From a virus (Duplodnaviria; Caudoviricetes), in IMG/VR virus record IMGVR_UViG_2784746785_000001, positions 11,017 through 75,016 of that record: a DNA stretch of 64,000 nucleotides. One strand, written 5' to 3'. The notes under the pieces were generated by a model that saw only the letters and a list, made by a program, of their open reading frames with translations, was not told the DNA's origin and ran no database searches. Position 1 is the stretch's first letter. The number at the start of each line of letters is the position of its first letter. The position numbers and the translations under genes were made by a program. Below, piece after piece: positions 9,909 through 55,084 of the stretch.

Positions 9909-10136
9909 TTAGTTGTACTGCTTCATGAGTACCGCGTAGGCAAGCTGACTGGCTTCGTCCTCGGGCTCGATGTCCCATCCGCGGTCGTAGTTGAGTGTGA
10001 CCTTGCCGCCGACACGCAGTTCCATCTTGGAAATGCGTCCGCCGTCGATTCCGTAATCCTCGGAAGGCTCCGGGTAGTGCTTTACCCAGTACTTTACAAC
10101 CGCTCCTTCGATGAGCAGTGATCCTTTTTCCCACAT
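9909..10136 (-). CDS. Small conserved phage hypothetical protein
   Basis: MWEKGSLL...YGIDGGRISK...NYDRGWD; RBS GGAGG. Confidence 0.75.
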   Translation of the reverse strand: MWEKGSLLIEGAVVKYWVKHYPEPSEDYGIDGGRISKMELRVGGKVTLNYDRGWDIEPEDEASQLAYAVLMKQYN

Positions 10137-12541: not shown

Positions 12542-13801
12542 TCACTCGCCGTCCGGCAGCTCGACCTCCTTCACAAGGTCGGAGTACATGAGTTTCTTGC
12601 CGTCGCGGACGACATGCACGTTCCCGGAATCGCCGGTGTCCTCGACGTAGCGTCGGAGGATGACGGAGGCGTATTTCGGATCAAGCTCGCACATATAGCA
12701 GGTGCGGTTGAGCTGCTCGCAGGCCATGAGCGTGGAACCGGAGCCGCCGAAAGTGTCGATGACGATGGCGTTCTCCTGCGTGGAGTTCTGGATCGGATAG
12801 CCGAGCAGGTCGAGAGGCTTGCTGGTCGGATGATCCTTGTTGCGCTTGGGTTTGTCGAAGTTCCATATGGTGGTTTCCGCGCGTCCTGCGTACCACGGAT
12901 GCTTGCCGTTCTGGAGGAATCCATAGAGCACGGGCTCATGCTGCCACTGGTAATCGGAGCGACCGAGTACGAGGCTGTTCTTCACCCAGATGCACACGCC
13001 TGCGAGATGGAATCCAGCGTCGACGAAAGCACGCCGGAAGGTCAGGCCCTCGGTGTCCGCATGGAAGCAGTATGCCGCGCCGCCTTTCTCCAGATGGTCG
13101 GCCATGTTCTTGAATGCGGAGAGCAGGAAGTTGTAGAATTCCTCGCCCTTGAGGCTGTCGTTCTGGATCGTCAGGCCATCGGATGCCTTGAAGGAAACGC
13201 CGTACGGCGGGTCCGTGAGTACGAGGTTCGCTCGCTTGCCGTCCATGAGTGTATCTACATCTTCAGCGCTGGTGGCGTCGCCACACATCAGCCTGTGCCG
13301 TCCGACCGCCCAGATGTCGTCGCGCTCCACGAAGGAGGCCTTCTCAAGTGCAGCGGACAGGTCGAAGTCGTCATCCTCGATGTCCTTGTCGGATTCTCCT
13401 TTCAGCAGCTTCTCAAGTTCCTTGTCGTCGAATCCGAGCAGGGAGAGGTCGAAGGCGTTCTCCTGCAAATCGGAGAGTTCGACGGAAAGCATCTCCTCAT
13501 CCCAACCGGCGTTCAGCGCGAGCTGATTGTCGGCGAGGATGTAGGCGCGTTTCTGCGCGTCGGTCAGATCCTCGGCGAATACGCAAGGGACGGTCTTGTA
13601 CCCTTCCTCTCGTGCAGCAGCAATCCGTCCGTGGCCGACGAGGATGTTGTAATCCTGATCGATGACCGCAGGGCTTACGAATCCGAACTCCCGGAGGGAG
13701 GAGCGGAGCTGCGCGATCTGTTCTTTACTATGTGTCCGGGCGTTCCGGGCATATGGCACCAGATTGTCAATCGGTACCTGTTCAAGTCTTTGTGTGTTCA
13801 T
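12542..13801 (-). CDS. ParB-like N-terminus fused to an N4/N6 DNA methyltransferase
   Basis: LVPYARNARTH and ILVGHGR (ParB); TDPPY and DTFGGSGST (MTase motifs IV and I). Confidence 0.92.
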   Translation of the reverse strand: MNTQRLEQVPIDNLVPYARNARTHSKEQIAQLRSSLREFGFVSPAVIDQDYNILVGHGRIAAAREEGYKTVPCVFAEDLTDAQKRAYILADNQLALNAGWDEEMLSVELSDLQENAFDLSLLGFDDKELEKLLKGESDKDIEDDDFDLSAALEKASFVERDDIWAVGRHRLMCGDATSAEDVDTLMDGKRANLVLTDPPYGVSFKASDGLTIQNDSLKGEEFYNFLLSAFKNMADHLEKGGAAYCFHADTEGLTFRRAFVDAGFHLAGVCIWVKNSLVLGRSDYQWQHEPVLYGFLQNGKHPWYAGRAETTIWNFDKPKRNKDHPTSKPLDLLGYPIQNSTQENAIVIDTFGGSGSTLMACEQLNRTCYMCELDPKYASVILRRYVEDTGDSGNVHVVRDGKKLMYSDLVKEVELPDGE

Positions 13802-27473: not shown

Positions 27474-28613
27474 ATGGCATTGGAATTCAAAACCTTGTTC
27501 CAGATTTTGAAGAAGCATCTGGCTGATGGCTACGATGTACCTCATTTCTTTCGTGATCTTATGGCTATGTTGACAGAGGTTACTGAGGAGGAATGGGGAA
27601 CTTCAAAAGATCCTTCCCAAGCGGGGAGAGATAAGTCTTTGCGCAGTTACGCAAAGCGCGGGCTACCTAAGAAGCTGGCACAAACAATCGTCTATAGACT
27701 TACTCCAGAGAATGTGGTTGATAGCATCAACAGCCATGGTGAAACGCAGCGGCGATTACTTGCGGAAGATTTGGAAGGATATGATCCCGATATAAACGCC
27801 GATAATGTTGCCGAGAAAGTTGCGGCTTGGCTGGTGGAAATAGTTCAGGTCTCTGCTGGACTTGTCCCACAGGACGAACTGACAAAGCAGAAACAGCAGC
27901 AGCTTGACGCACAGCTAAAAAGCAAATATGGCGACTACCTGCTTGCCGAAGAGGAAAACCATTGTGCGTTCCCCGGCTGCGGGCGCGAACTTGTGCTGAC
28001 TAAGGACGGCAGAATCTCCTACGCATATGAGGTAAGTCTGATTGATAAAGTTGCACCGGCAGTTCCCGACAATCTTCTGGCGATGTGTCCGCAGTGCCAT
28101 GCAACCTATCTGCTTGATTCCAACAAGAAGCTATGCAAGGAACTTCAGGAGACAAAAAAGGTACTGGCAACGCATAGACAGAATGTGCACATGCTTGATG
28201 ACCTTCCCTTGGAAAAAGGAATCGTCAGCGTGATAACGAGAATCGCCAAACTGAATGAAAAGGATCTTGCAGATGCGTCGCTTGATCCAAAGGAGATAAA
28301 GCAGAAGCTCGATCCGACAAAGGACACAGCCATCTACTATGCGGTGAACAATTACGTCGGCGTTTACTTTGTACGAATCAGAGAAATTATGATGAATCTT
28401 GATAAGCGCAGCGTCATTGACTACGAGGAAATCCAAGATCAGATGCATGCGCTGTACCGCCGCTTGAAGAAGGCGAAGAAAACTCGCCTTGAAATATTCA
28501 ACGAGATAACGAACAAGGTACATCGCGTCTCGCTGCAGGATGAAATCTACTGCCAGATCGTGGTTGCCTACTTCGTTCAAAGCTGTGAGGTGTTCGATGC
28601 AATTACCGAATAA
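27474..28613 (+). CDS. ABC-three-component (Lamassu-like) effector: HNH-like Zn module plus C-terminal CTD
   Basis: HCAFPGC...DNLLAMCPQCH; C-terminal IVVAYFVQSCEVFD typical of ABC-3C CTDs. Confidence 0.75.
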   Translation: MALEFKTLFQILKKHLADGYDVPHFFRDLMAMLTEVTEEEWGTSKDPSQAGRDKSLRSYAKRGLPKKLAQTIVYRLTPENVVDSINSHGETQRRLLAEDLEGYDPDINADNVAEKVAAWLVEIVQVSAGLVPQDELTKQKQQQLDAQLKSKYGDYLLAEEENHCAFPGCGRELVLTKDGRISYAYEVSLIDKVAPAVPDNLLAMCPQCHATYLLDSNKKLCKELQETKKVLATHRQNVHMLDDLPLEKGIVSVITRIAKLNEKDLADASLDPKEIKQKLDPTKDTAIYYAVNNYVGVYFVRIREIMMNLDKRSVIDYEEIQDQMHALYRRLKKAKKTRLEIFNEITNKVHRVSLQDEIYCQIVVAYFVQSCEVFDAITE

Positions 28614-28827
28614 GCTTTATTCATATGAAGAAAGCACCCTGGCATTGTTGCCGAGGGTGCTGAACGAACTGAAAAACGGGTCAGTTTCTGCGGGAGAGCT
28701 GTATCTATCGCTGAAGCATAGCCTGAAGGATCCTACGGATTTTCTATCCGCAATGGACTGCCTCTACGCTTTGCGGGCAATAGACATGAGCGATGACGGG
28801 GAGGTTTCCATATGCTTAAAGAAATGA
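28597..28827 (+). CDS. ABC-3C middle component (LmuC-like)
   Basis: MQLPNKLYSYEESTL...FLSAMDCLYALRAID; overlaps both neighbours. Confidence 0.78.
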   Translation: MQLPNKLYSYEESTLALLPRVLNELKNGSVSAGELYLSLKHSLKDPTDFLSAMDCLYALRAIDMSDDGEVSICLKK

Positions 28828-30464
28828 GATCCCCGGCCTTCAGAATAGATGGTGAGGAGAGACCGCCGATAACTTTTCACGAGGGATTAAATGTTGTCCT
28901 TGGAATGGGAAACGGCAAGAATTCAATAGGAAAGTCCTCTGCAATGCAGGCTATCGACTTTGTGTTCGGTGGAAGCACCTATGTCAAAGGCGACGGCGTA
29001 AAGCATGTGGGGCACCATACGATTTTCTTCACGTTTGAATTTGACGGGCAGGAATACCGCTTTGCAAGAAATACCGGTGATCCGGATATTATTCAGGTGT
29101 GTACAGACGGATATGCCTTGACCGGAGAGACGAAGGGGAAAAGCGAATTTGTTGAGTGGCTTAAAGGAAAATATGACCTTGACTATCCCGGCTTGTCTTT
29201 CCGTTCTACACTGAGCAGTTTTTTCCGGATGCATGGGAAAAGCAATGTGAGCGCCCAGGAGACTCCACTGTATGGTGTGCGCGGGGACAGCATGCAGAAA
29301 TCATTGGACCGGCTTGTCAAGTTGTTCAATCGATATAAGGACATTGAGGCTTCCAACGCCAATCTGAGGGAACAGGACGATAAGCTCACCGCATACAAGG
29401 CTGCACGGAAGTATCAGTTTGTCTCCGATCTCGTTGGCGGCGACAAGCAATATGAAGCGAATTCCGCCAAGATCCGCTCTCTGCAGGTGGAACTTGATAA
29501 TCTCACTTCCGAGCAAGTGGAGGTGCATTCTGAAGAGGATATCGAAAAGCAGCAGAAGAAGGCCGAGCTTCGTGGACGAAAGCTTAAAATCGAGACGCAG
29601 ATCGAGGCAAAGCAACGTCGATTGAATCTGCTGGATATGAGCCTTGAGTATGGCCTGTATCCGACACAGGCTGATCTGAAATCCCTGCAGGAGTTCTTTC
29701 CTGACGTGAATATCCGGAAGCTTTACGAGGTGGAGAACTATCATCAAAAGCTCGCCAGGATTCTCGATGACCAGTTTGAAAGCGAAAAACAGGCTGTTCT
29801 TCTTGAGATCGCGGATTTGGTAGGACAGAGAAAAGATGTCAGTGAGCAGATAAAGGCACTCGGATTTGTGGGAAACATTTCCAAGGAGTTCCTTGACAGG
29901 CATTCAGAGTTAAAGGGAACCATTGATGCGTTGAAAGCACAGAACGAGTCATATTTGACACTTCGAGATTTGAAGGAGGCAAAAAAACTCGCGAATGATC
30001 AACTGAAAAATGCCATCCGGCAGGTCCTAACTGATATCGAGCAGACCATCAATGCAAAGATGGCCGAATACAACAGCACGTTGTATTCAGAACACCATAA
30101 CCCGCCAAAGCTGACGATTAAGGAATACAATAGTTTCACGTTTGAAACTAAGGGAGACGACGGAACGGCAGCGGCTTACAAGGGAATGATCATATATGAT
30201 CTTGCGATTTTGAACACTACTGGCCTTCCAGCAATCGCACATGATTCTTTGCTCTATGGTGATTTGAGTTTTGAACTGGTAGAGGGAATCATGAAGCTGT
30301 ACATGCAGAATAAAAAACAGGTGTTCATTTCATTTGACAAGCAGGAGGCACATACTCCTGAAACGCAGCGGATACTTGAAGACCATACAGTCATAAGGTT
30401 ATCTGATGGAACCGGAAAGCTATATGGACAGTCATGGGATACAGAGACAGAGGATGAGTCATGA
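28812..30464 (+). CDS. ABC-3C SMC-like ATPase (DUF2326, LmuB-like)
   Basis: Walker A NSIGKSSAMQAIDFVFGG, long coiled coil, KGDDGTAAAYK, IAHDS Walker B variant. Confidence 0.85.
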   Translation: MLKEMRSPAFRIDGEERPPITFHEGLNVVLGMGNGKNSIGKSSAMQAIDFVFGGSTYVKGDGVKHVGHHTIFFTFEFDGQEYRFARNTGDPDIIQVCTDGYALTGETKGKSEFVEWLKGKYDLDYPGLSFRSTLSSFFRMHGKSNVSAQETPLYGVRGDSMQKSLDRLVKLFNRYKDIEASNANLREQDDKLTAYKAARKYQFVSDLVGGDKQYEANSAKIRSLQVELDNLTSEQVEVHSEEDIEKQQKKAELRGRKLKIETQIEAKQRRLNLLDMSLEYGLYPTQADLKSLQEFFPDVNIRKLYEVENYHQKLARILDDQFESEKQAVLLEIADLVGQRKDVSEQIKALGFVGNISKEFLDRHSELKGTIDALKAQNESYLTLRDLKEAKKLANDQLKNAIRQVLTDIEQTINAKMAEYNSTLYSEHHNPPKLTIKEYNSFTFETKGDDGTAAAYKGMIIYDLAILNTTGLPAIAHDSLLYGDLSFELVEGIMKLYMQNKKQVFISFDKQEAHTPETQRILEDHTVIRLSDGTGKLYGQSWDTETEDES

Positions 30465-30745
30465 AGAGAAAAATGAGCTATAAGAAACTGTGGAAGTTGC
30501 TGATTGACAGAGATATGAAAAAAACAGACCTCAGAACAGGAGCGGGTATCAGTTCGTCTTCCCTCGCTAAGCTCAGCAAGGACGAAAATGTCACGACAGA
30601 TGTTTTGCTGCGGATATGTGACTCGTTGGATGTAGATTTGAATGATATAGCAGAAACTGTGCCTGAAGGTGAAACAGTTGTAGAAGTAAGAGCTGAGAAA
30701 CGCAGGCGAACGGCAACAAAACAACATAGGATTGAAAGAACCTGA
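30461..30745 (+). CDS. Cro/C1-type HTH regulator
   Basis: MSYKKLWKLLIDRDMKKTDL...LLRICDSLDVDLNDI. Confidence 0.88.
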   Translation: MKRKMSYKKLWKLLIDRDMKKTDLRTGAGISSSSLAKLSKDENVTTDVLLRICDSLDVDLNDIAETVPEGETVVEVRAEKRRRTATKQHRIERT

Positions 30746-30838: not shown

Positions 30839-33800
30839 TTGCAGATGCTTAATAGGGAAATTCCCTTTAGACCAAAGCTTGAGGGCGATTTTCGAATTCG
30901 GTTTTACAATGCTGTATCAAGCATTACTGAACAGACTTCGCTTTTTGAAATCGAGCAAATAGCCAACGATGAAATAAGGTGGGTGCAGGATGAGTGCACC
31001 TATAATTTGGAGCAAAGAAAAAAATATAGAGCGATATGGATGCTTTTCCGCGATTTAACGAGAGCATCCTGGAAAGCGTGCTACCGAGATGGCGTTTTAT
31101 ATATGAGCTTACCTAGCCTGAATGGGGCCAATTTCCACGACAGCTCATCTCCTGAGGTAAAAAGCTTATTGAGGAAATGGATGAGCGAAAGCCGCCACGA
31201 GCGCTTGGTTTCATACACTGATTTTATTCAACGGATGGAGCGCAAGAATTCAAGCGGGCATAGCATAGATGAACTTATTGCTGATGGACAAGAATTAAGC
31301 AATAGACTAAGGAAAGCAAAAGATGGCGCTATTGATATTTCTGAGGCAGTAAAACCGTATTTACAGCTAGTAGTTGAAAATGAAAGAGATGAGTATACAG
31401 GCATAAAGACATCTGAGATATGGAGATATTTTCGCCTTACGTGGTCAACCCCTGCAGAAACCACGCCTGGAAGAACTATGCAATATCTTATTAGAGACGC
31501 AGCTCATCCCATGCATGCAGTTATGGGTATTGCTTCTCTTGAAAACTGTGCAGTTCAGATTACATGCCGCGATGATTTCATTGGCTGGAATCAGAAGGCT
31601 TTTATTGATCGAATCACAAAGCTGAACTCCGAACAGGCACGTGCTGAATTTGACAGACTTTTGAATTACATAGAAGTTGGCATTTCAGGGATTGATTATG
31701 AGGAACTTTGTACACAGGCAACTGTAGATAATCCGACGGATGAGGATATACAGCAACTGCTCGATATTGCCACAAGTGCTGAGCAGCGTAGGCAGGAGTT
31801 ACTAAAAAAAGGTGTAATTGACGGTATAGATGAGGAAGATAAAAGCGATCTAGGGAGCATTTCAAAAGAAACCGAGGATGCGCTTTACAGAAGAAAAAGA
31901 GCGGAGCAGTTAGGACGGCTTTTGATGGCAAAAAAAGAGCTTTTAGCTGTTTATAGGTCTGAGGATTTTAATTCGATTTGGGTAGAGTTCTGTAATAGCG
32001 AGGTAGGAAATTCCTCTATAAGAACAGCTTTGGTTGCTCAAAAGACTCAACATATCGGGTCAAGCTTAATGGAACTGAATGTTTGCGGTGCTATACCACC
32101 ATATAATGAAATCCTTGGAGGAAAGCTTGTCGCGCTACTGGCATTATCTCCGCAGGTAATACACGATTATAAGGAACGCTATTCAAATAAGGCTAGTATG
32201 ATTGCAAGCCGACTTAAAGGTGAGGATGTCGTTCGCCCTGCTGATTTGGTGTATGTGGGAACTACATCCTTGTACTATGTTGGCTCAAGTCAATATAACA
32301 GATTAAAAATACCTGGAAGCATATTTAATGACGACTATGATGTTGTATGGAAAAAGCTTGGTATGACAATTGGCTATGGCACAATGCATATTAGTAAGGC
32401 CACAACCCTTAGCCTTACTGAGGCAACAAGCGAAGGCTTTACTCGTATTAACCATGTATTTGGTGAAGGCGCAAGTCCTAAGATGCGTCTTTTGACGATG
32501 GCCATCCGTGAGTTACTAGAGTCAACAAATGAGGACTCAAAGGATTTTTCAAAGCATGCCATGTCTCGAATTGTTTATGGTGCTTGTTTAGCCAAAAATA
32601 CAGTGCAGTACTTAATGGGTGAAGCAGATAAACCTGATTATTACACTGATGTATCAAAATATCAGGAAGGGACACAAAAAATAATAGATTACTGGACAAA
32701 TCGATGGTTGAAAAGCAGATTGAATTTTGAACCGATTTACCAGAGAATCCGCGATTTTGATAAGAAGAACCTGATGGTTGGATATCAGATTAATGACGAT
32801 GAAAGATGGAAATTCGAGAAACTCGAGGAGGTGCCACAAATGCCAGCTAATGATGAGAATAAGGTTGGGCTGCAGTTTGTCCGTGATTTCTATAGAGGAA
32901 TGAGCGCCTATGCGGATCATATCGCCCCAAAACTCCTCACGGGAATTCATCTAAAGACAAAATTAGATGATGCTGTCCTTAATGCGGCAAGGTCTGGAAA
33001 AGACGTTGTTCTCACTGGGAATCCAGGAGATGGAAAAACGCACATTATCCGCATGCTGAAGGATCAGCTAGAAAAACTGGCTGTTCCGATGGTAATCGAG
33101 CTTGATGCGAGTACTCTATCTGACGAAGAAATATATTCTCATTGGGAGCAGGCTCATAAGGATGGCAAGGCGTTTATCATAGCAATAAATGCCGCAGTTC
33201 TTTATTCGGTTTATAAAAGCCATCCTGCGTTTGGATCTGTTAAAAATGCATATGGACAAATGGCGGATGCGATAGTCTTTCACAAAAAAGATATTGATAC
33301 TAGCTCGCTTGTCGTATTTGATCTTAGTAAACGAGAGGCGCTCACGCCTGAAATACTTAGTCAGGCCATCCTTAAAATGACTGATGAAAGCCACTATAGT
33401 GAGTGCAGGTCCTGTCCACTAAGATCAAACTGTGTGGTGCATAAAAACCGAGCGCTGCTGAGAAATGATCTTTTCCAGCAAAGGCTTGGCTTAGTATTAG
33501 AGCGAGTGTCGCTCAGAGGATATCATGCAACTATTAGAGAAATTCAAAGCTTCATTTCTTATTTGATTTTCGGTGATAGAAGTTGTAAGCAACTGAACCA
33601 GACTGCAGGGAACAGTGAATACGACCTTGTTAACCTCATATATTCAGGTAAAGGCGCGTTGTTTGACGAGATTGGAAAAGCTATCGATCCTGTCAATATT
33701 TCTCATCCTATTTGGGATGAGAGGATACTACTAAACGACATTGATTCAAACTCATGGATTGAAGGCTTTGAGGTTCCGGCAGAGGCCATTGCCTATGATA

Positions 33801-34435
33801 ATGAAGACCTTTTCAATCTTAGGAAAAGACAGTTCTTCTTTTTCAATCAGTATGGGGAGGATCTGCTTTCTATTCTTGATGATGATATATCCAGATTCAG
33901 GACTTTTCTTCAGCAAGATGATGGAAAGATAATCAAGGAGTTAATAGGGAAACTTAATAGCTTTTTTGGAGCGACTAACGCTTCTAATTCGCGGTTACAA
34001 ATATGGACGGGACATCGATACAACAATGAACCAAGAAAGGTACTTATCTCAGTTGGAACTGTAAAGAAAAGTGAATTAAGCATTGGCCATCCCAGACTTC
34101 TGTCGAGTATGCAGGAAGGAATTGATATGCTTCCTAATTATATTCGATTGGAGAAGAAGTCCTCTCCTAATACCTTTCTAAAGGTGGATTTTGAGATGTA
34201 CCTTTTGCTTAATGAGGCTCAAAGAGGTGTCCCTGTTTTGTTTACGGAATCTGATCTAGTAAAGAAGGTATGGCGGTTTATCGAACAACTACAGTCATAT
34301 AGTAGTATTGATGATGAAGATATAGTTGATATTGGCCTGATGGATGTTCAGAACAAGAAAACCATTATGGTGAGCCTTGACAGGGAAGATAATAAATATT
34401 CATCGATTGAAAGCGAAAAAACAAGGGAGGCATAA
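30839..34435 (+). CDS. DruA-like (DUF4338) domain fused to a DndF/DptF-like P-loop ATPase
   Basis: N-part: YLIRD, CRDDFIGW, CGAIPPYNEILGGKLVA, TTSLYYVGSSQYNRL. C-part: LTGNPGDGKTH, IIAINAAVL, CRSCPLRSNC, TIREIQSFISYLIFG. Confidence 0.78.
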   Translation: MQMLNREIPFRPKLEGDFRIRFYNAVSSITEQTSLFEIEQIANDEIRWVQDECTYNLEQRKKYRAIWMLFRDLTRASWKACYRDGVLYMSLPSLNGANFHDSSSPEVKSLLRKWMSESRHERLVSYTDFIQRMERKNSSGHSIDELIADGQELSNRLRKAKDGAIDISEAVKPYLQLVVENERDEYTGIKTSEIWRYFRLTWSTPAETTPGRTMQYLIRDAAHPMHAVMGIASLENCAVQITCRDDFIGWNQKAFIDRITKLNSEQARAEFDRLLNYIEVGISGIDYEELCTQATVDNPTDEDIQQLLDIATSAEQRRQELLKKGVIDGIDEEDKSDLGSISKETEDALYRRKRAEQLGRLLMAKKELLAVYRSEDFNSIWVEFCNSEVGNSSIRTALVAQKTQHIGSSLMELNVCGAIPPYNEILGGKLVALLALSPQVIHDYKERYSNKASMIASRLKGEDVVRPADLVYVGTTSLYYVGSSQYNRLKIPGSIFNDDYDVVWKKLGMTIGYGTMHISKATTLSLTEATSEGFTRINHVFGEGASPKMRLLTMAIRELLESTNEDSKDFSKHAMSRIVYGACLAKNTVQYLMGEADKPDYYTDVSKYQEGTQKIIDYWTNRWLKSRLNFEPIYQRIRDFDKKNLMVGYQINDDERWKFEKLEEVPQMPANDENKVGLQFVRDFYRGMSAYADHIAPKLLTGIHLKTKLDDAVLNAARSGKDVVLTGNPGDGKTHIIRMLKDQLEKLAVPMVIELDASTLSDEEIYSHWEQAHKDGKAFIIAINAAVLYSVYKSHPAFGSVKNAYGQMADAIVFHKKDIDTSSLVVFDLSKREALTPEILSQAILKMTDESHYSECRSCPLRSNCVVHKNRALLRNDLFQQRLGLVLERVSLRGYHATIREIQSFISYLIFGDRSCKQLNQTAGNSEYDLVNLIYSGKGALFDEIGKAIDPVNISHPIWDERILLNDIDSNSWIEGFEVPAEAIAYDNEDLFNLRKRQFFFFNQYGEDLLSILDDDISRFRTFLQQDDGKIIKELIGKLNSFFGATNASNSRLQIWTGHRYNNEPRKVLISVGTVKKSELSIGHPRLLSSMQEGIDMLPNYIRLEKKSSPNTFLKVDFEMYLLLNEAQRGVPVLFTESDLVKKVWRFIEQLQSYSSIDDEDIVDIGLMDVQNKKTIMVSLDREDNKYSSIESEKTREA

Positions 34436-34440
34436 CTGTA

Positions 34441-35934
34441 ATGGAAAGAATATACCTACGCGAAGCACGTGGAGATGTTGATAAAAAATATGTTGGATTT
34501 ACTCCCAATGGGTCTGCAGTTAAGCCGGTCCATATTGCGGGAGGGTCTCTACGCTGTATCTACGGTAAATACAATCGCACGCGAAATATAAAGAAAATGG
34601 CACTTGTTTCTGATGCGAAGGGTAATGTGCCTTCTGGGAATGACGCTGATACGATTTATCAGGAGTTAGAGAATAAGGAATTAATTGAAGATAACGTTAC
34701 AGAAAACTCAGTCGAATCTATGCGAAATGAAATGCAAAGACTGCTTTCTGTAGATAGAGGTGTTTATGTCGTTAAAGGATTGAAGGATGGGATGATTTCT
34801 TACTCTGCTGGTTCAAAATACTTTTTGACTAGTAAGGCGATGTATGAGGATGCTGGAGAATTTATGGGAAGCATCGTTAGAGCCTATTGTCCTGACCTTG
34901 CGGAGTATATAAGTGAACTTCTTGATAAAGGAACAGATGCAATTACTCTGTTATTTCAACCTGTTCTTGAGGCTGACATGGAGGAATTCACTGACCAGAA
35001 TCAATATGAGGATATCCCTGCGTTTCAGAGCATGAATGACCAAATGAAAAGGTTTACCACCGGCATTGCTGAAGCCGGTTCATGCCTGTTGGACAATCTG
35101 CGGCATCATCCGAATCCCTTGACACAACTGAGGCTTTTTAACTTTTTTTGCATCTTTAACTTGATTAGATATATGGCCCTGCTAGAAGCCTTTTATTGTG
35201 GTGAGTCCGTTAGACCAATCCTTCTTGATTTTAGCGGTAAAAGTCAAAGCTTTAGCAGCGTTGCTCGTGCCTCAGAGATGTCTTATACGCAAATGTATAA
35301 ATCCATCAACAGATTTTATGCGTGGGGCTATGCAAAATGGCTTGAAGACGACAAGGGATATACAAAGGACGATCTCTTAAACTCCGAAACTCCAGCATAT
35401 GAGGAAGGTAAAAAGGTATCGAAAACGAGCAAGGAGGAATTAGATGCCTTGTGGACGCTTGCAAAGGAACGAGCGAGTACCCTTGATGGGGAGGAAATGT
35501 ATACAGCGTTTGGCGAGACAATGTATGACATGCTTGCGCTGGAGGCCTCTTCACATCCGGTTAATTATTTGAGAGCACTCGGTAACTTATCAGGGATTCT
35601 TTACCCGCCTGACAAATTCCATCCGAATAAGCGCTTTGTTGTTTCGCAGGATATCTTAGAGATGCTCCTGAGGAGTTGCGTTAAATCAAGTGAAGTAATA
35701 AGTGGTCAGGATATCAGAAAACGTCTATGGGACCGCTTTGGCATTATTATAGGCGGCGGACAATTTGAAATGACGACTCTTCACCAGAGTGGCATGATCC
35801 TTCAGATCGACGAAGATGCTCTAGAAGATAATTTCTCTGCCTTTGCATCTGTTCTTGAGTCAATGGATTTTGCAGAAATCATGGCAGATGGCATTTTGCA
35901 GATCAGATTAGGAGGCACTGAAAATGATAGATAA
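34441..35934 (+). CDS. DndG/DptG-like protein
   Basis: 497 aa, between the ATPase and FtsK genes. C-terminal LEMLLRSCV...LWDRFGIIIGG...LESMDFAEIMADG resembles DndG-type C-termini. Assignment rests largely on size and synteny. Confidence 0.55.
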   Translation: MERIYLREARGDVDKKYVGFTPNGSAVKPVHIAGGSLRCIYGKYNRTRNIKKMALVSDAKGNVPSGNDADTIYQELENKELIEDNVTENSVESMRNEMQRLLSVDRGVYVVKGLKDGMISYSAGSKYFLTSKAMYEDAGEFMGSIVRAYCPDLAEYISELLDKGTDAITLLFQPVLEADMEEFTDQNQYEDIPAFQSMNDQMKRFTTGIAEAGSCLLDNLRHHPNPLTQLRLFNFFCIFNLIRYMALLEAFYCGESVRPILLDFSGKSQSFSSVARASEMSYTQMYKSINRFYAWGYAKWLEDDKGYTKDDLLNSETPAYEEGKKVSKTSKEELDALWTLAKERASTLDGEEMYTAFGETMYDMLALEASSHPVNYLRALGNLSGILYPPDKFHPNKRFVVSQDILEMLLRSCVKSSEVISGQDIRKRLWDRFGIIIGGGQFEMTTLHQSGMILQIDEDALEDNFSAFASVLESMDFAEIMADGILQIRLGGTENDR

Positions 35935-38900
35935 GCAAGAACTTGTTATAGAACTTCTCGGTCAGCACCTGGCGGCATTAAAGGTTGGCATCATTATTAA
36001 AGGGGTAGATGGAATCTCTCCTGAATCAATAATTGCTGGCCTAGCATCAGATAGTCAGCACTTATATGGAGCAGCTATAGGATACGATGGGGTAAAGGAG
36101 CATGCAGAGAAGAACTACGATATTACAGATTCTATAGAAAAGGCAGTTCTATGGAGGAGTATTCCGGAGTGTGCGGGGCGCATAGTCGTTTTTATAAAAA
36201 CAGATACTGACAAGCTTCATTCTCTGTCAGAATTTGAAAATATAAGTACAAGAGACATCTCTCGCTATTTACTTGAGAAGCAGGTAAACAGCAACAATAA
36301 CACCCCTACAAATAATTTTTGGTCAGCTTTAGAAAAAACCTCTGACTACTACACATTCGAAGCTGTTGAAGATTTTGTTAATGCAGTCGCGAGAAGTAAA
36401 AGGCCTGAGGACGCAATACCTAAAAACATGTGGCGATTAAACTTGCTTGAGGATAATGACATCCTTGGCACGAAGAGTAAGCCAGAGGATCGCCTTGCTC
36501 AAAATCGAGATATGATTTTTGCTATTGGGCAGCTAAGTGAAGATTCAAGAAAAAAGCTTAGCCGTTCGCTCGTTCGCTCGAAGGCAAAGGACAAGGCTCG
36601 CTTGCAAGCAGCTTATCGTAGCTTACAGAATTTTTACAAGTATGGTAATCAGGATACATTAAAGGATCTTGACCTTACTACTGTTCAAGAGCTCTTTTCC
36701 GCCTCACAGAAGAAGGAGAAAGTGAAGAAGAAGGAGACACCTAATCCAACCGATGGTCCGGATTCTGACGAGCCAGATTCCAATACTCCTATTCGTCCTA
36801 AGGAACTTGATAGGTTGGTTTCTGATGCCATCGTTTTTGGCGATGATGAGGAACAAAGGGATATAAGCAATCTTCTAGAGGAGTTGGATAAGCATTACGA
36901 TACTGAGACTGAGGAAAATGATGATTCAATTCCTCCTATCGGGGGTATTTTCGAAGATCGTAGTATCGCTCTTGATACGCATCAGACAGATTTAAGGAAA
37001 CTCGTTGGTAAGTTCTGCGGCCTAAATTCATGGGGCGGCATCATGGAGACAGACGAAAGTGTCCTGAAGGATGCTATTTCCGCAGATATTAACGCTCTAC
37101 ATATATTCGACCCTGAGAGTAAAGATGCTGTCATTTCGTTTGTAGGAGGCATAGACGGAAATCAGCCTTTATTTGATTTTATTAAGCAGTTTGATGAGCA
37201 ATTTGACAGCAAAGGTCTGGAGACTCTTGAGAGATTCACTCCAATAATTGACAATCTTAAGATTGCAAGAAAAAGCCTTCTTACACATCTTGACCTGATT
37301 ATGTATCATCCAGTTCTTTTGTTTGGCGCATCTGAAAAGAGCAAGAATGATCTCATTGAATATATTCAGGCCTGGGAGCGGCTATATCACGCTTTCTGCA
37401 ACAATGAACCTACCATGAGGCAGATAAGTCCGGGCGGAACAAGTTTTATTGCAAGAGCGATATTGCTATTAGACATACTATACGTAAAAACTCCAAAGGA
37501 ATGGAAGGGTATTTTATTGCCGCTTCATCCTATTTATTTGTGGCGGTATTATGAGGTCTTCAGGACACTCCCCAATAAAAAAGCCACACTTGCGGAAGAG
37601 GATAAGGAAGCACTAGCAAAGGTCCTAACTCAATTGCCACAGGTTTTAAGTTTTATTGTTGCTAATAATCTCGTGACAAATACTTCTGAGGATCGTATTC
37701 TGCCCTGCTCTGGTAGTATTGAAATGCTACCAACGTTTGAAAACAAGACGAACCGCTACCTGGGAAATGATGGGACAGAATCGATAGAGGAAATTCTTAC
37801 AAGATGGATTGGATTCGCTCCATATACAAGAAACGAAATCAGAATTTGCTCTGTTGATGCGCCGGACTTGATTGGAATAATCCGTCAGGTCAAGCATTTT
37901 ATGGATAAAAATGAAGTAAAAAGAGTCGTTTATGATGTTTACCTTACGAGAAATCAAAATGGAAACACCGAGCTTTCAAAGCTTGATTATTCTGGCAAGG
38001 ACTACGAAATAGGTGAATTTATAAGAAATGATCGAATTGCAATTAGCATACATAATTGCAAGGATTCTACCGAAGTTAAAGTGGCATTAGAGTTTAGGCC
38101 GGTACATGTGGCTTTTTACTTTGATCAATCCTCGTATTCCATCGAGTATGGCCCGAATAGTCACAACCTGTATATTAATCCGCTTGTTATCACCTATGAG
38201 TATGACTTTGATGAGATTCAGCATAAAGGAACAATCTTCCCTTCATCTGAGTCTGAATCTGGACTTATAGGAGACTATAACAAGCTATTAAGGTCAGCGG
38301 ACATTATAAGTAACAATATGAATCCGAGGACAACATATAATGGAAATGCAGACATGACTGCTGTTGTTTCTACCATAAAGGATGCGCAGACCCAATGGCT
38401 CGTTGTAGCGGATAGAGATACAAATAACTATCAGCCTCAGTCCGCTATTCCTATTGGTGAGATGCAGTACGACAAGCGAATGGTTAATGCTTGGGCGGCA
38501 GACAATTCAAGAATAATTACGCAGTATTTGGATCTTCTTCGAGGCTATAACCTCTATCCTAAGAAGGACACACTTGTTGATATATTGCGTCAATTTGGAC
38601 ATATTGCTTCGAACGGGTTGATTAGCATACCGAGGTTCGGCGCTGATACGCAGGCAATAGACAATAAGAAGAAGGGTTTAATAGGAACACTTTTTGCAGC
38701 GTCCTGGTATATGAAAAAGTATGATGACGCCCTTGTTGCATCATTAGATGACGATAAGGCTCGCCTTTGGCTGCAAGATAGCAAATATGGAAATGAAAGA
38801 GCTGACCTTGTAGGTCTTCATTATGATGCGGTTGAAAACAAGCTTTATGTTGAGCCCATTGAGGTCAAGACTAGAGATGAATCTCCAGATGCGACAATAA

Positions 38901-40705
38901 CTAGAGATGAGGCCGATTCCAAGCACTTTAACATCTCAGGTCATGCCGCAGAGCAGATAGCGTCTATGGTTGAGCTGTTGCGGGAAATTTTCTACTCGGA
39001 TAAAAACTCAATGGATATGTTTACCTCTGCGCGGAGAGAGGTTTTGAAGTATCAAATTGTTTCTGAGTGCTTCAGAAATGTGCATGATTCTGATTGGCAA
39101 AAGAGATGGTATCTAATCTTGAAAAAGGCCTTCGGTAGTGGCGAAAGCGAAGGACTTAAGATTGAAGTTTCTGGAATTCTTCTTCATATAAAGTTGAACG
39201 AGGCCTCTGGAGGCGAACATATACCATGTAAGAATCCTGATTACGACGATTGCTCAATAGATTACTGGAAATTAACGGCAAAGGAAATACAACACGATAT
39301 CCTTGGCGAGGAAACCAAAATAAAGGAATCAATTACTCCGGATTTTGACAATTCTGAGGAATCTGATAAGGAAACTGAATCTAGTGATGACGCCTTTATT
39401 GATACTGACATAGAGGTAGCGAAGGACGAAATGGTGCCTGACAATAATGCAGTAGGACTGTATTCTAGGGATTTTTCTGATCATGGTCAAAAAGTACCGA
39501 TGGTTGCTGAGGGGAATCCAAGCAGTGCAAGCATTCTCAGAGATTCTGGTCCTACACCATATGAGACTAAAAAAAATGCTGAGAAGGAAAATAATGGTGT
39601 CAGCCGCTCCGAGATAGATCGGTTGGTTAAGGATTTTAGGCGCTCGTGTGGTGACTATCATGTTACGCTTAAGGAATGCAATGCAGAGGATACTGTTGTT
39701 GGCCCAAGCGTTATAAGGTTGAAATTCAAGCTTGGGCGAGGACAGGCCCTGCAGGGACTGCAAAGTCATCTCGAAGACATTGGCAGAGAAATGAAGAGGA
39801 CAGGCGTAATTATTCAACAGGTGCCAAATTCTGATGAGCTCTTATTGGATGTGCCGAGGCTTAAACGAGAAAAGGTACTGTTTAGGGATGTGATTGGCTC
39901 ATTACCAAAGGTCACTTCACCTGAGCAGTTGTATTTCCCGTTAGGAAGAACTCCTAATGGTACGGATCTTTTTGAGGATCTTGGAGAGATGCCACATATG
40001 CTTGTGGGAGGAAGTACTGGCTCTGGTAAATCAGTATTCCTTTTCTCAATGCTTGCCGCGATGCTGATGACTCATCCTCGAAAAGAAGACTTGCAATTAA
40101 TTCTTTCTTCAGCAAAGCTGGAGGATTTCATCCATTTTGCTGGGCTTCCCCATTTATACTCTGGCAGTATTATTTCAGATGCTGAGGAGGCCACCCGCGT
40201 AATAAAAGAGGTGGTTTATGAAGAGTCTGAGCGCAGAGGGAAGCTATTAGCTGATGCAAGAGTTGCTAACATTATAGAATACAACAAAATTGCAACTGAG
40301 AAACTTGCTCCAATTGTTGTTGTAATAGATGAGTTCGCGGATTTGGCGGACCAATTAGAAACAAAGAAGGAGCAGAATGCTTTTTATAAGCCTGTACAGC
40401 GCATAGCGCAGGCTGGCAGGAGCAGAGGAATTCATCTCGTTATATGTACGCAGAGGCCAGAAGCTAAACTGGTTCCTTCAACGACAAAAGCTCAATTGAA
40501 TGGCCGAGTTGCGTTGCGTGTAAATGATGCCATTTCTTCTAGAATGATTATTGAGGAGCCTGATGCCCAGTATCTACAGAAGCATGGAGACATGATATAT
40601 AGAAATGGTGATGTTATAGAAAGAGCCCAGGGATATTTAATCGAAATCCCTGAGTTGGACGAAATAGTTCAAAACGTAATAGACGGGAAGTATTTGAAGA
40701 GGTGA
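35924..40705 (+). CDS. DndH-like large protein: PD-(D/E)XK nuclease plus C-terminal FtsK/SpoIIIE translocase
   Basis: ERADLVG...PIEVKTRD (nuclease); HMLVGGSTGSGKS, VVVIDEFADL, GRSRGIHLVICTQRP and GDMIY (FtsK). Confidence 0.82.
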   Translation: MIDKQELVIELLGQHLAALKVGIIIKGVDGISPESIIAGLASDSQHLYGAAIGYDGVKEHAEKNYDITDSIEKAVLWRSIPECAGRIVVFIKTDTDKLHSLSEFENISTRDISRYLLEKQVNSNNNTPTNNFWSALEKTSDYYTFEAVEDFVNAVARSKRPEDAIPKNMWRLNLLEDNDILGTKSKPEDRLAQNRDMIFAIGQLSEDSRKKLSRSLVRSKAKDKARLQAAYRSLQNFYKYGNQDTLKDLDLTTVQELFSASQKKEKVKKKETPNPTDGPDSDEPDSNTPIRPKELDRLVSDAIVFGDDEEQRDISNLLEELDKHYDTETEENDDSIPPIGGIFEDRSIALDTHQTDLRKLVGKFCGLNSWGGIMETDESVLKDAISADINALHIFDPESKDAVISFVGGIDGNQPLFDFIKQFDEQFDSKGLETLERFTPIIDNLKIARKSLLTHLDLIMYHPVLLFGASEKSKNDLIEYIQAWERLYHAFCNNEPTMRQISPGGTSFIARAILLLDILYVKTPKEWKGILLPLHPIYLWRYYEVFRTLPNKKATLAEEDKEALAKVLTQLPQVLSFIVANNLVTNTSEDRILPCSGSIEMLPTFENKTNRYLGNDGTESIEEILTRWIGFAPYTRNEIRICSVDAPDLIGIIRQVKHFMDKNEVKRVVYDVYLTRNQNGNTELSKLDYSGKDYEIGEFIRNDRIAISIHNCKDSTEVKVALEFRPVHVAFYFDQSSYSIEYGPNSHNLYINPLVITYEYDFDEIQHKGTIFPSSESESGLIGDYNKLLRSADIISNNMNPRTTYNGNADMTAVVSTIKDAQTQWLVVADRDTNNYQPQSAIPIGEMQYDKRMVNAWAADNSRIITQYLDLLRGYNLYPKKDTLVDILRQFGHIASNGLISIPRFGADTQAIDNKKKGLIGTLFAASWYMKKYDDALVASLDDDKARLWLQDSKYGNERADLVGLHYDAVENKLYVEPIEVKTRDESPDATITRDEADSKHFNISGHAAEQIASMVELLREIFYSDKNSMDMFTSARREVLKYQIVSECFRNVHDSDWQKRWYLILKKAFGSGESEGLKIEVSGILLHIKLNEASGGEHIPCKNPDYDDCSIDYWKLTAKEIQHDILGEETKIKESITPDFDNSEESDKETESSDDAFIDTDIEVAKDEMVPDNNAVGLYSRDFSDHGQKVPMVAEGNPSSASILRDSGPTPYETKKNAEKENNGVSRSEIDRLVKDFRRSCGDYHVTLKECNAEDTVVGPSVIRLKFKLGRGQALQGLQSHLEDIGREMKRTGVIIQQVPNSDELLLDVPRLKREKVLFRDVIGSLPKVTSPEQLYFPLGRTPNGTDLFEDLGEMPHMLVGGSTGSGKSVFLFSMLAAMLMTHPRKEDLQLILSSAKLEDFIHFAGLPHLYSGSIISDAEEATRVIKEVVYEESERRGKLLADARVANIIEYNKIATEKLAPIVVVIDEFADLADQLETKKEQNAFYKPVQRIAQAGRSRGIHLVICTQRPEAKLVPSTTKAQLNGRVALRVNDAISSRMIIEEPDAQYLQKHGDMIYRNGDVIERAQGYLIEIPELDEIVQNVIDGKYLKR

Positions 40706-40711
40706 TTACTG

Positions 40712-41392
40712 ATGTCTGAGCCGGAGGTTAAATATGGCATATTTAAGACAGAAATCAAAAACCGTTTTCTGTGCACTGTGAATGTCGACGGGATAGACAC
40801 ACTATGCTATATTCCCTCCTCCTGCAGATTAAGTAACTTTATTAATATGAAAGGCCGAATGGTTTTGCTGTTGCCTATAAAGAAAGAAAATGCACGGACG
40901 AAATATTCCGTGTATGCCATTCAGTACAGACGAGGCTTTGTACCCGTAAGCTTGTCGAGTGTTAATCAAGTTATAAAAAACGAGCTTAATAGAAGAATTT
41001 TCTCTTTCTTGGGTAGCAGAAAACAAGTTTTTGGTGAAAAAAGCATTGATGGTTATAAGAGCGATCTTTATATAGAAGATAGCGATACAGTCGTTGAAAT
41101 TAAAAGCATTCTTTCTTTTGGCAAGGAAGCTTTGTTTCCAACCGTATCCTCAGAGCGGGCTAATCACCAGTTAGAGAATATCAGGGAACTTCTTCTGAAT
41201 GGACATAAAGTATGCTATATGTTTATTTCTATGTATGGAGGTACAAAGCAGATAACCGTTAATGAGGAGCAAACAGAATACTTTTCTCTTTTTAGGAAAT
41301 GTATAGAGGTAGGCATGACGGTTCGTGGTTTTTCCTTATATATGGATAATGGCGTGCCAAAGGTGAAGGCAACAGTCAAATGCATCTTTTAA
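40712..41392 (+). CDS. sfsA: SfsA-family DNA/RNA nuclease
   Basis: NRFLCTV..DG...CYIPSSCRL (OB fold); SDLYIE...VVEIKS; ERANHQLENI. Confidence 0.8.
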   Translation: MSEPEVKYGIFKTEIKNRFLCTVNVDGIDTLCYIPSSCRLSNFINMKGRMVLLLPIKKENARTKYSVYAIQYRRGFVPVSLSSVNQVIKNELNRRIFSFLGSRKQVFGEKSIDGYKSDLYIEDSDTVVEIKSILSFGKEALFPTVSSERANHQLENIRELLLNGHKVCYMFISMYGGTKQITVNEEQTEYFSLFRKCIEVGMTVRGFSLYMDNGVPKVKATVKCIF

Positions 41393-43304: not shown

Positions 43305-43322
43305 TATTTTTTGAAAAAATAC

Positions 43323-43354
43323 TTGACAGGGACAAAGTCCCTACTTGCTAAGAT
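43323..43354 (+). promoter_or_regulatory. MerR-type promoter with dyad operator
   Basis: TTGACA, 20-bp spacer, TAAGAT; dyad AGGGAC-AAA-GTCCCT at 43328-43342. Confidence 0.8.
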
Positions 43355-43379
43355 AGGTCTTGAAAGGAGGTCGAAGTAT

Positions 43380-44066
43380 ATGAGACCAAAAGAAATTCAA
43401 GAAAAACTCAATATCGATGGTGACAGAATTAAGCTGTTTAAGAGGGAGGGAATCTTCACACCGGAGAATCCACCATCTGGAAATCGAAGCACCAATTATA
43501 CAGATGCAGATTGTGAGCATTTACGATTGCTTGTAGTGCTTACTAAATCTGGGCTTACATGCAGCGATATCAGAAAGTTGCAAGAAGGTGAATGCACTTT
43601 AGAAGAAGCAATAAAAATCAGAAAGAATAATATTGATGCTGAGATAAAGAGAAAGCAAAATGCATTGATTTTGCTTTCAGAACTTCTTGCTGATAAGGTG
43701 GAATTTGAAACATTCGAAACAGACCATTATTGGAATGTTATTGCGGCGAGAGAAGCAGAGGGCGAGGAATTCATCAATACAGAAGATATGTATGGCTATC
43801 GTGCGGTATCGTTAATTCGCAGTATCAAATGCCCTTATTGCGGTGAGGAACATGAAGTGGATTTAGAAGATTACATGTATGACGAGAGCAGTTATGAGAA
43901 AGAGAATGGAATGGGACCAGATGTAGTCTATAGCTTTAATTCCGAGGATGGTTATGAATGTCATGAATGTGGTAGAATTATACAAATCGAAGGTTGGATT
44001 CGAGAATACCCTGAAGGGGCATACGATTCGGAAGATATCAATGTAGTCGAAGGAGAGAAGGATTAG
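43380..44066 (+). CDS. MerR-family regulator with a C-terminal Zn-ribbon-like domain
   Basis: N-terminal MerR HTH (REGIFTPE...NYTDAD..HL..L..L...GLTCSDI); CPYC and CHEC motifs. Confidence 0.82.
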   Translation: MRPKEIQEKLNIDGDRIKLFKREGIFTPENPPSGNRSTNYTDADCEHLRLLVVLTKSGLTCSDIRKLQEGECTLEEAIKIRKNNIDAEIKRKQNALILLSELLADKVEFETFETDHYWNVIAAREAEGEEFINTEDMYGYRAVSLIRSIKCPYCGEEHEVDLEDYMYDESSYEKENGMGPDVVYSFNSEDGYECHECGRIIQIEGWIREYPEGAYDSEDINVVEGEKD

Positions 44067-46764: not shown

Positions 46765-47529
46765 TTGAAGACCATTATACGAAAATCCATGCTTTATCAA
46801 ACCGGGGTGGAGTATGGCGATTACACAATGAATCATGTACAGGGATGTGCACACGGATGCAGATATCCATGCTATGCATTTCTTATGAAAAAACGGTTCG
46901 GGCAGATTAAAAATTATGAAAGCTGGATTGAACCAGCACTTGTTTCAAATACGCTTGATCTATTGGATAAAGAAATTCCACGGTTGAAAGACAAAATTCA
47001 TTCTGTTCAACTTTGCTTTACGACCGATCCGTTTATGAATGGATATCCGGAAGTTTCTGAAATGAGTATAGCTGCTATTCGAAAATTAAACGATGCAGGT
47101 ATAAAATGTACAACACTTACTAAGGGACTCTTGCCAATGGAACTGGCGGAGCTTTCAAAAGAAAATGAGCATGGAATTACATTGATTTCACTTGACGAGA
47201 CATACCGTGAACAGATGGAGCCAGGAGCGACATCTTCTGTAAATCGGCTGGCTGCTCTCCGGGCACTCCATGACGCGGGGTGCAAGACCTGGGTAAGCAT
47301 CGAACCTTATCCGACACCGAACATGATCGAGCAAGATCTGCATGAAATATTGGAAGCTATAGATTTTGTAGATCGAATTATTTTTGGAAGGACAAACTAC
47401 AGTAAAGTCGCAAATTCTTATGAAGGACATAATCATTTTTATAATGAGTGCGCTGCAGAAGTAATTGCTTTTTGTAAAGAGCACGGCATTGATTATCATA
47501 TCAAGTCAAAGACAATAACGGAAGAATGA
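46765..47529 (+). CDS. Radical SAM protein (SPL-like)
   Basis: NHVQGCAHGCRYPCYA, CFTTDPF, TLTKG, GITL, WVSIEP; TTG start after GGAGG. Confidence 0.82.
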   Translation: MKTIIRKSMLYQTGVEYGDYTMNHVQGCAHGCRYPCYAFLMKKRFGQIKNYESWIEPALVSNTLDLLDKEIPRLKDKIHSVQLCFTTDPFMNGYPEVSEMSIAAIRKLNDAGIKCTTLTKGLLPMELAELSKENEHGITLISLDETYREQMEPGATSSVNRLAALRALHDAGCKTWVSIEPYPTPNMIEQDLHEILEAIDFVDRIIFGRTNYSKVANSYEGHNHFYNECAAEVIAFCKEHGIDYHIKSKTITEE

Positions 47530-49668: not shown

Positions 49669-49670
49669 CC

Positions 49671-55030: not shown

Positions 55031-55084
55031 GTATAATTATCCTTGTAACAATTGATTCTCACAATACACTTAAGGAGGATGATT

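Follow-up and report, generated by a model that had tools for sequence, protein, structure and literature searches.

We describe here a gene of an SspFGH/DndFGH-like translocase-nuclease cassette in which the P-loop subunit, of the SspF/DndF type, is fused to a full long-form DruA module. The gene lies within positions 11,017 to 75,016 of the virus record IMGVR_UViG_2784746785_000001 (Duplodnaviria; Caudoviricetes), a stretch of 64,000 nucleotides (nt) that is called the window below and to which all coordinates refer. An earlier note, made from the sequence alone, had placed a DruA-like half at 30839-32839 of a DndFGH-like restriction operon, and family models confirm both halves of the protein and, with a marginal match only for SspG, the genes downstream. 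We conclude that the cassette is a DruA-bearing variant of the SspFGH/DndFGH kind that is independent of phosphorothioate (PT). The single most likely mechanism, which we put forward tentatively, is that the DruA half acts as a writer of a DNA self-mark in place of PT. The gene and its parts are the following:

30839..34435, + strand: DruA-SspF fusion gene (open reading frame, translation, matches to DruA and SspF/DndF models, relatives, start context)
30839..31339, + strand: N-terminal domain of the DruA half, residues 1-167 (three helices, a beta-hairpin and further helices in the model)
31340..32647, + strand: predicted GNAT-fold core of the DruA half, residues 168-603, split by a helical insert (AlphaFold2 model, VIA-align, entropy)
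31589..32053, + strand: helical insert between GNAT strands beta3 and beta4, residues ~251-405 (secondary structure of the model, entropy)
32072..32134, + strand: ELNVCGAIPPYNEILGGKLVA segment, residues 412-432 (strand beta4, loop and N-terminus of helix alpha3; position of GNAT motif A)
32826..32842, + strand: internal Shine-Dalgarno sequence GAGGAGG and in-frame ATG (Met668) at the DruA/SspF junction (sequence)
32840..34435, + strand: SspF/DndF-like P-loop half, residues 668-1198 (PADLOC models, invariant residues)

The gene is a single open reading frame of 1,198 amino acids (aa) counted from the TTG at 30839. Since an AGAGGA Shine-Dalgarno sequence precedes the ATG at 30845 and the relatives are 1,196 aa long, the likely start is residue 3, at ATG 30845. 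The segment 30839-32839 encodes residues 1-667 of the fusion protein, and the whole protein has relatives in more than 100 clusters, about 1,196 aa long and 74-98% identical to it. Residues 43-639 match the PADLOC model DruA1 (PDLC00001) with an E-value of 1.2e-118 over model positions 43-650 of 675, and Pfam PF14236 (DruA/DUF4338) matches residues 400-594 with 116.9 bits against a cut-off of 27, which makes the half a member of the DruA family. Pfam gave no match for the N-terminal part, the insert or the C-terminal tail; PHROGs holds no family for any of the four cassette proteins, and a search of the ESM Atlas returned DruA clusters only.

The best-conserved motif of the DruA family is ELNVCGAIPPYNEILGGKLVA (residues 412-432). 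Within it, 35 fusion proteins with 25-64% identity to the query all keep C416, G417, P421, L426, G428 and K429, and 84 DruA proteins (about 27-56% identical to the query) all keep G417, P421, Y422 and L430. In the latter alignment 15 residues are invariant overall, six of them arginines, and the motif-A-like CG..PY...GGK segment is included. Taken with this conserved segment, the invariant arginines are what one would expect of an active, polyanion-binding enzyme; the pattern is neutral as to which polyanion it would be. An entropy scan of 104 homologues (74-98% identity) points to the same region: the lowest values of the whole protein are found in the two halves of the GNAT core, residues 181-260 and 401-580 (0.06-0.5 bits), as compared with mostly 0.5-1.5 bits in the SspF half. 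The helical insert, with up to 1.55 bits, is the most variable part of the DruA half, and inside it K353 and R354 are invariant.

The AlphaFold2 model of residues 1-670 has a mean predicted local distance difference test score (pLDDT) of 92.2 and a predicted template modelling score (pTM) of 0.91. When this model was compared with 48,161 solved chains by VIA-align, the best 50 matches were all GNAT acyltransferases, aligned to model residues 168-603 (Z 7.8-9.6; root-mean-square deviation, rmsd, 2.7-4.6; 129-173 residues aligned). The GNAT core was revealed by this exhaustive comparison only, as a Foldseek search of the 670-aa model against the PDB gave nothing (best E 0.55) and sequence and profile searches against PDB sequences returned 0 matches. 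The core fold of GNATs runs beta1-alpha1-alpha2-beta2-beta3-beta4-alpha3-beta5-alpha4-beta6, and the predicted model of the DruA half contains it. As modelled, therefore, the DruA half has a GNAT fold in which about 150 residues of helical insert separate strand 3 from strand 4. The earlier note had guessed at such a fold and named an AlphaFold/Foldseek analysis of residues 1-667 as one check; Foldseek came back blank, but VIA-align of the same model agrees with the guess, with GNATs only in its best 50.

The beta4-alpha3 loop, or motif A, is where GNATs bind the pyrophosphate of their cofactor; its consensus at the acyl-coenzyme A (acyl-CoA) pyrophosphate site is Q/R-x-x-G-x-G/A. Around ELNVCGAIPPYNEILGGKLVA the model has a strand at residues 410-418 and helices at 422-425 and 427-434, so that PPYNEILGGK sits at the place of motif A, with the conserved G427, G428 and K429 at the helix N-terminus and a spacing that departs from the consensus. 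The proposal that this segment is an acyl-CoA-binding GNAT motif thus holds as regards its location, exactly at the beta4/alpha3 cofactor site, and fails as regards the canonical signature. Given this departure, the donor could be acyl-CoA or an aminoacyl-tRNA. The N-terminal domain, folded alone, reached a pLDDT of 86.6; its best structural matches were mixed helical proteins (highest Z 7.1) and its Foldseek E-values were all above 0.29. A winged helix had been suspected in this domain (residues 1-168) from its secondary structure and was rejected as unsupported, the few rows of winged helix-turn-helix repressors returned by Foldseek being insignificant (E 0.7-1.3).

In the second half of the protein, residues ~693-935 match the PADLOC SspF model partially (E 1.2e-16) and the DndF model weakly (E 3.8e-7). 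The Walker A motif GNPGDGKT at residues 727-734 (33017-33040) is invariant, and the residues invariant in the 35 fusions comprise T726, G727, G730-T734, D756 and N784. An intact Walker A P-loop and an asparagine at the Walker B position, the latter presumably N784, are the marks of the DndF core as defined by Rakesh et al. (2024), and both are found here. A split 523-aa SspF-like gene in a related locus (L009) aligns to residues 668-1193 (34% identity, E 8e-113) and starts exactly at the position of Met668 of the fusion. In the fusion gene itself, the GAGGAGG Shine-Dalgarno sequence stands 7 nt ahead of the in-frame ATG of Met668. This arrangement, (A/T)(A/T)GGAGG-N7-8-ATG, is kept at the DNA level in about 20 Bacillota loci, always with G-rich codons within an AT-rich gene, while the linker peptide varies. 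The conservation of an internal start despite the variable linker suggests that a free SspF-like ATPase may be made alongside the fusion.

Relatives of the fusion are encoded by at least 444 species genomes. Their hosts include Bacillota, Chloroflexota, Actinomycetota, Cyanobacteria, Myxococcota, Pseudomonadota and Bacteroidota, as well as Acidobacteriota, Verrucomicrobiota, Planctomycetota, Spirochaetota and Halobacteria. From Bacillota to Halobacteria the order DruA-SspF, SspG-like, SspH-like is kept; the SspH motor domain and the SfsA gene, described below, vary among loci. The stand-alone SspF-like relatives that could be placed lie either at a contig end or immediately downstream of a separate DruA gene of 680-689 aa (L009, L090 and L091); in one further locus (L092) the contig ends within the DruA gene upstream. 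In every informative case, fused or split, DruA is an obligate partner in this clade. In a search for short-form DruA relatives, the best 120 matches were all fragments, split forms or stand-alone DruA genes.

Pelagibacter phage Mosig, a T4-like pelagiphage, carries an orphan DUF4338 gene of 432 aa (L095:3395-4693) with 2-oxoglutarate-oxygenase, MazG and deformylase genes as neighbours. A Foldseek search of viral models (BFVD) returned uncharacterised proteins of 469, 1,157 and 1,260 aa from metagenome-assembled genomes of giant viruses, the two longer ones being close to the fusion in length.

The question of which self-mark the cassette could use was addressed in the host assembly (3.72 Mb, 70 contigs, 98.9% complete). 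No match was found to PF01507, a model that was matched in all 14 control genomes, and none to TIGR03183 (DndC) or PF13182 (SspB); TIGR03185 (DndD) gave only weak matches, SMC-like and N-terminal, far below the cut-off. The PF01507 fold, that of 3'-phosphoadenosine 5'-phosphosulphate (PAPS) reductase, is common to DndC, SspD and the BREX-4 enzyme. Lacking it, the host has neither DndC nor SspD, which makes a supply of PT in trans very unlikely and close to excluded for this host. The cassette likewise lacks the coupling to sspBCD and PT modification that goes with SspFGH. The module is thus an orphan, as had been claimed, and the dnd/ssp modification genes whose presence elsewhere in the host would have told against a new mark were not found in this assembly. 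Neither the amino-methyltransferase motif [DNS]PP[YFW] nor a methylase domain was found in the four cassette proteins, which bears out the view that the DruA domain is the only writer candidate in the operon.

We consider it very improbable that a known mark acts in trans, be it PT, the product of dnd, ssp or BREX-4 genes, or that of the type III methylase 6 kb downstream, and that DruA is irrelevant to self-recognition. This explanation can draw on the type III Mod/Res pair at 47539-52553 of the same island and on a search of 50 genomes carrying the fusion, 12 of which have DndC or SspB somewhere (DndC above the cut-off in 7 and as fragments in one more; SspB in 8). On the other hand, the other 38 have neither marker, and the present host has no PAPS-reductase-fold gene at all. 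Where it could be mapped, the marker was hundreds of kilobases from the fusion or on a different contig; the remaining ones were on other or unmappable contigs, with no visible linkage to the cassette. Moreover, the type III pair is not conserved beside the cassette in relatives.

Two further observations concern sulphur and PT genes. Lacking PF01507, the host probably also lacks assimilatory sulphate reduction. In Anaerotruncus colihominis DSM 17241 (G011), a 468-aa open reading frame has a weak PP-loop-like DndC match (E 5.9e-4; C1:184039-184275); it lies some 7 kb upstream of the cassette and in the same orientation.

The writer role of the DruA half is a hypothesis that has gained circumstantial support. 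In its favour are the GNAT fold with Mom of phage Mu as the first match, the obligate partnership, the position of the GNAT core as the most conserved part of the protein, the independence from PT, and the lack of another writer in the operon. The need to restrain SspFGH is a further argument. The Vibrio SspFGH module by itself causes DNA damage and, in cells that lack PT, toxicity (Wang et al., mBio 2021, PMC8092258), so that some restraint is needed in PT-free hosts. Finally, a preprint (bioRxiv 10.1101/2024.04.14.589459) reports an adenine signal called as N6-methyladenine ('m6A'; CAGCTGNC) on uninfected host DNA of cells expressing the methylase-free Druantia I; the system has no methylase domain and the responsible gene is not named. 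Being apparently the only transferase-fold component of Druantia I, DruA is the natural suspect for this signal, and m6A calling could also pick up a bulkier adduct at N6.

On this hypothesis the DruA domain would be an active transferase on nucleic acid. It would attach an acyl group, or one derived from an aminoacyl, to the DNA of the host itself. The most likely site is adenine N6, by analogy with Mom, which uses Gly-tRNA to modify this position in double-stranded DNA (PMC13219725). The domain would act while tethered to the restriction complex, like the methylases of type I/IIG restriction-modification (R-M) systems and BREX. The mark would restrain the SspG/SspH motor-nuclease on self DNA, and unmarked incoming DNA would be nicked or cut, perhaps with SfsA as a helper nuclease. 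The upstream helix-turn-helix (HTH) protein and the internal start, by giving free SspF, could tune the order and the ratio of marking and cutting. A wider proposal, possible though rather doubtful, is that DruA/DUF4338 represents a new class of DNA-modifying GNAT writers whose non-methyl adduct, on adenine or otherwise, serves as self-mark for at least two unrelated machines, Druantia I and the PT-free SspFGH-like cassette. Such a class would explain the methylase-free 'm6A' signal of Druantia I.

A number of observations weigh against a DNA writer. Mom (8bv8_B) ranks first in the VIA-align search (Z 9.6, rmsd 4.0, 173 of 202 residues aligned), followed by ordinary protein and small-molecule GNATs (Z 9.1-7.8); since the next rows, ordinary N-acetyltransferases, reach Z 9.1, Mom is tied with them under VIA-align's own rule. 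Alignment of the DruA profile by hhalign gave a probability of 0.4% with the single Mu Mom sequence and of 0.17% with an 8-member Mom alignment built from phage records, and none of the 35 fusion proteins had a Mom-family match in Pfam at E<=1. The likeness to Mom that had been suggested for DruA therefore stands as a nominal best structural match and not as a sequence-profile link, and, judged from the model, DruA is close to Mom in fold only. A resemblance seen by eye, ELNR...PRNSES in Mom and ELNV...PYNEIL in DruA, is without statistical support and was given no weight. Mom depends on the essential residues R111, S124 and R151 for its tRNA-dependent reaction on double-stranded DNA (PMC13219725, whose numbers, followed here, equal GenBank numbering + 10), and in the by-eye alignment R111 and S124 fall on V415 and L426 of DruA.

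Further points against a writer come from outside the comparison with Mom. In the N-terminal 167 residues Pfam and structure searches recognised no DNA-binding domain. Protective methylases are often captured by phages, and phage capture of DruA might be expected if it wrote a protective mark; DUF4338 was seen in just 1 of 50,697 phage records (Pelagibacter phage Mosig) and in no PHROG family. The 'm6A' lead is weak: it comes from one preprint that links the signal to no gene and also makes the less credible claim that a second motif is induced by a phage protein of 44 aa. Moreover, DndFGH was counted in 1,798 taxa and the full set of eight dnd genes in just 316; most DndFGH systems are orphan and lack a DruA domain (Rakesh, Aravind & Krishnan, NAR 2024, PMC10853773). 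A writer is thus not a logical necessity, and these counts weaken the earlier premise that an orphan module must have one. The same authors read the DUF4338 GNAT as a back-up effector that acts on proteins.

Following that reading, the DruA half could be a back-up or abortive effector, whose GNAT comes into play once the main restriction is blocked: by acylating a protein or, in the manner of the TacT/AtaT toxins, an aminoacyl-tRNA, it would shut down the infected cell. We regard this as unlikely, albeit with published reasoning behind it: PMC10853773 lists the GNAT (DUF4338) among the variable N-terminal effector domains of DndF, next to HEPN, NERD and kinases. Most of the best 50 structural neighbours are indeed protein or small-molecule acetyltransferases, and DndFGH often comes without modification genes. 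On the other hand, a variable add-on would hardly be present in every case examined in the clade, be more conserved in its GNAT core than the ATPase to which it is fused, and recur among the core genes of Druantia type I. Nor was an antitoxin-like partner seen, and toxin GNATs are small (~170 aa) as compared with this 667-aa module with its extra conserved domains.

Somewhat better placed, although still doubtful, is a regulatory or sensor subunit, in which the GNAT fold would either bind a ligand (a metabolite such as acyl-CoA, or a nucleotide made by the phage) or acylate SspF, SspG or SspH, and switch the complex on during infection without any self-mark. Such a role would agree with the argument that DndFGH is a stand-alone system sensing soluble infection signals (PMC10853773), and with the covalent tie between the DruA domain and a nucleotide-binding subunit. 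The conserved internal start, which would allow set ratios of free and fused SspF, and the fast evolution of the insert and the N-terminal region, as expected of surfaces that meet invader molecules, also point this way. Yet the putative catalytic cleft is strictly conserved over two unrelated backbones, Druantia I and the SspFGH-like cassette, which argues for a common chemical reaction, and a sensor leaves the adenine signal of Druantia I unexplained.

The fusion gene is followed and preceded by these genes:

30461..30745, + strand: Cro/C1-type HTH gene, 94 aa (Pfam HTH_26, E 1.7e-18)
34441..35934, + strand: SspG-like gene, 497 aa (marginal matches: SspG E 0.0047, MAD7 E 0.0023)
35924..40705, + strand: SspH-like gene, 1,593 aa (long N-terminal region, C-terminal FtsK/HerA-type ATPase)
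40712..41392, + strand: SfsA-family nuclease gene, 226 aa, with oligonucleotide/oligosaccharide-binding (OB) and PD-(D/E)xK domains (Pfam SfsA E 7.4e-13, SfsA_N E 4.8e-8)

The gaps from the fusion through SspG and SspH to SfsA are 5, -11 and 6 nt. As regards the SspFGH gene order, SspF is matched partially, SspG marginally and SspH in its C-terminal ATPase only, and the order is kept in most of the 79 loci that are long enough. In most of these an SspG-like homologue (21-90% identity) occupies the same position, in many phyla. The SspH-like protein matches PADLOC SspH (E 7.9e-63) over residues 1244-1581 only, together with Pfam FtsK_SpoIIIE (E 2.8e-30), and has its Walker A motif at residue 1363. 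Its N-terminal region is conserved in position across phyla and may contain a PD-(D/E)xK-like D...EVK motif near residues 956-979, read from the sequence only.

In 18 related loci a homologue of the HTH gene stands immediately ahead of DruA-SspF, in the same orientation, and most of these loci lack ABC-3C genes. The HTH gene is a probable transcriptional controller of the cassette, judging from its family and place, and may resemble the C proteins of R-M systems. Here its start overlaps the stop of an ABC-3C ATPase gene by 4 nt.

The SfsA gene matches TIGR00230 with an E-value of 1.5e-18, under the cut-off of that model. It is an accessory gene, present in about 27 of the 79 loci, mostly Bacillota. 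In two loci of the SspFGH type, L020 and L028 (about 9322-9930), it immediately precedes DruA and does not close the operon, and in a Druantia I-like locus of Paenibacillus brevis (L087, 4142-12572) DruE1 (1,857 aa) and DruA (634 aa) are followed by SfsA (227 aa). This adjacency of SfsA and DruA in three different arrangements, and the fact that DruA partners act on DNA (the Druantia helicase and the SspFGH motor-nuclease), would suit a GNAT that is directed at nucleic acid without making a self-mark. Such an enzyme could tag or block DNA or RNA ends of the invader, or prepare DNA for the SfsA and SspH nucleases, the mark being a signal for destruction. We think this improbable, since we know of no precedent of a defence system that marks an invader in order to cut it, and the Druantia I signal came from uninfected host DNA.

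The cassette is horizontally acquired and lies next to, or possibly inside, a prophage, within a defence island. A search of 40 related genomes (4 from the genus of the host, 20 from its family and 16 from its order) did not find the DruA-SspF gene, as expected of horizontally acquired cargo, and the G+C content drops from about 0.57 to about 0.41 at 27-28 kb of the window. The prophage, with about 57% G+C as compared with about 41% in the defence genes, occupies positions 1-27000 on the minus strand and encodes a major head protein, portal, large terminase, helicase, primase, DNA polymerase and exonuclease; it also carries a ParB-fused DNA methyltransferase (12542-13801). Directly upstream of the cassette is an ABC-3C system (27474-30464) with a CTD11 effector, a small middle component and a DUF2326 ATPase, a neighbour that recurs, intact or decayed, in at least 6 related places (L005/L006, L011, L012, L013, L027 and L034). 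Downstream, the defence island (42282-64000) contains a MerR gene (43311-44066), a radical S-adenosylmethionine gene (46765-47529), type III Mod (47539-49668) and Res (49671-52553), a RhuM-family gene (52698-53327), four consecutive tyrosine recombinases (54124-58332), a Shedu SduA-like gene (59265-60515) and a DUF6933 gene (63007-63588).

The problem of how orphan DndFGH/SspFGH machines spare their own DNA arises because the Vibrio system is toxic without PT. The cassette joins this problem to that of DruA function by linking a conserved and probably active acyltransferase, as its invariant residues suggest, to a restriction ATPase in hundreds of genomes of many bacterial phyla and haloarchaea. 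If DruA writes a DNA mark, the cassette would represent a new DNA modification and a new R-M logic, and would give the DUF4338 family a function. Even without mark-writing, a compact cassette of four or five genes with cultured hosts such as Anaerotruncus colihominis DSM 17241, whose version (L022) is 70% identical to the present one, is practical for testing DruA function directly, and orphan Dnd-type self-recognition too.

Four known systems bear comparison with the cassette. With Mom of phage Mu (PDB 8bv8; Silva et al., Nat Commun 2026, PMC13219725), which shows that GNAT DNA modifiers belong to restriction conflicts, the DruA half has in common the predicted GNAT fold (Z 9.6). Mom is phage-encoded, has 231 aa and uses Gly-tRNA, whereas DruA adds the 150-aa insert and the 167-aa N-terminal domain, and R111 and S124 of Mom have no evident counterparts in the by-eye alignment. 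With SspABCD-SspFGH of Vibrio anguillarum FF-93 (PMC8092258) it shares a three-gene module with a Walker-A SspF and an FtsK-like SspH. The Vibrio SspF is without a DruA domain, and its module adjoins sspBCD and needs PT to spare the host; by comparison, SspG of the cassette matches marginally and SspH only in its C-terminal ATPase, and the host carries no ssp or dnd modification genes.

Druantia type I consists of DruA, DruB, DruC, DruD and the DruE helicase. Druantia was reportedly described by Doron et al. in 2018, and to our knowledge DruA has been without a known function since. The DruA half is a full-length match to the long-form model of this system (E 1e-118) with the same invariant residues, and the Druantia I-like locus of Bacillota (L087) encodes a DruA of this form, 634 aa long, with SfsA as the next gene. 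The partners differ: DruE helicase in Druantia I, and here a covalently fused SspFGH-like machine. Indeed, the genes beside DruA in the cassette are SspF/G/H-like and SfsA, which sets it apart from Druantia type I, and a search of the host genome with DruE1 of L087 found no DruE, DruB-D not having been searched separately.

The nearest described relatives are the GNAT (DUF4338)-DndF fusions of PMC10853773, so that neither the GNAT assignment nor the fusion is new, both having been published in 2024. These fusions have the same layout, with DUF4338 N-terminal to the DndF P-loop core, and belong to three-gene F-G-H systems that, as here, are often uncoupled from PT modification. In that survey the fusion is given one sentence, as one of six occasional add-on domains, whereas DruA is an obligate partner in the clade described here. 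Beyond the published fusions, this is a large clade of many phyla in which DruA is the most conserved part and, in Bacillota, HTH and SfsA genes accompany the cassette.

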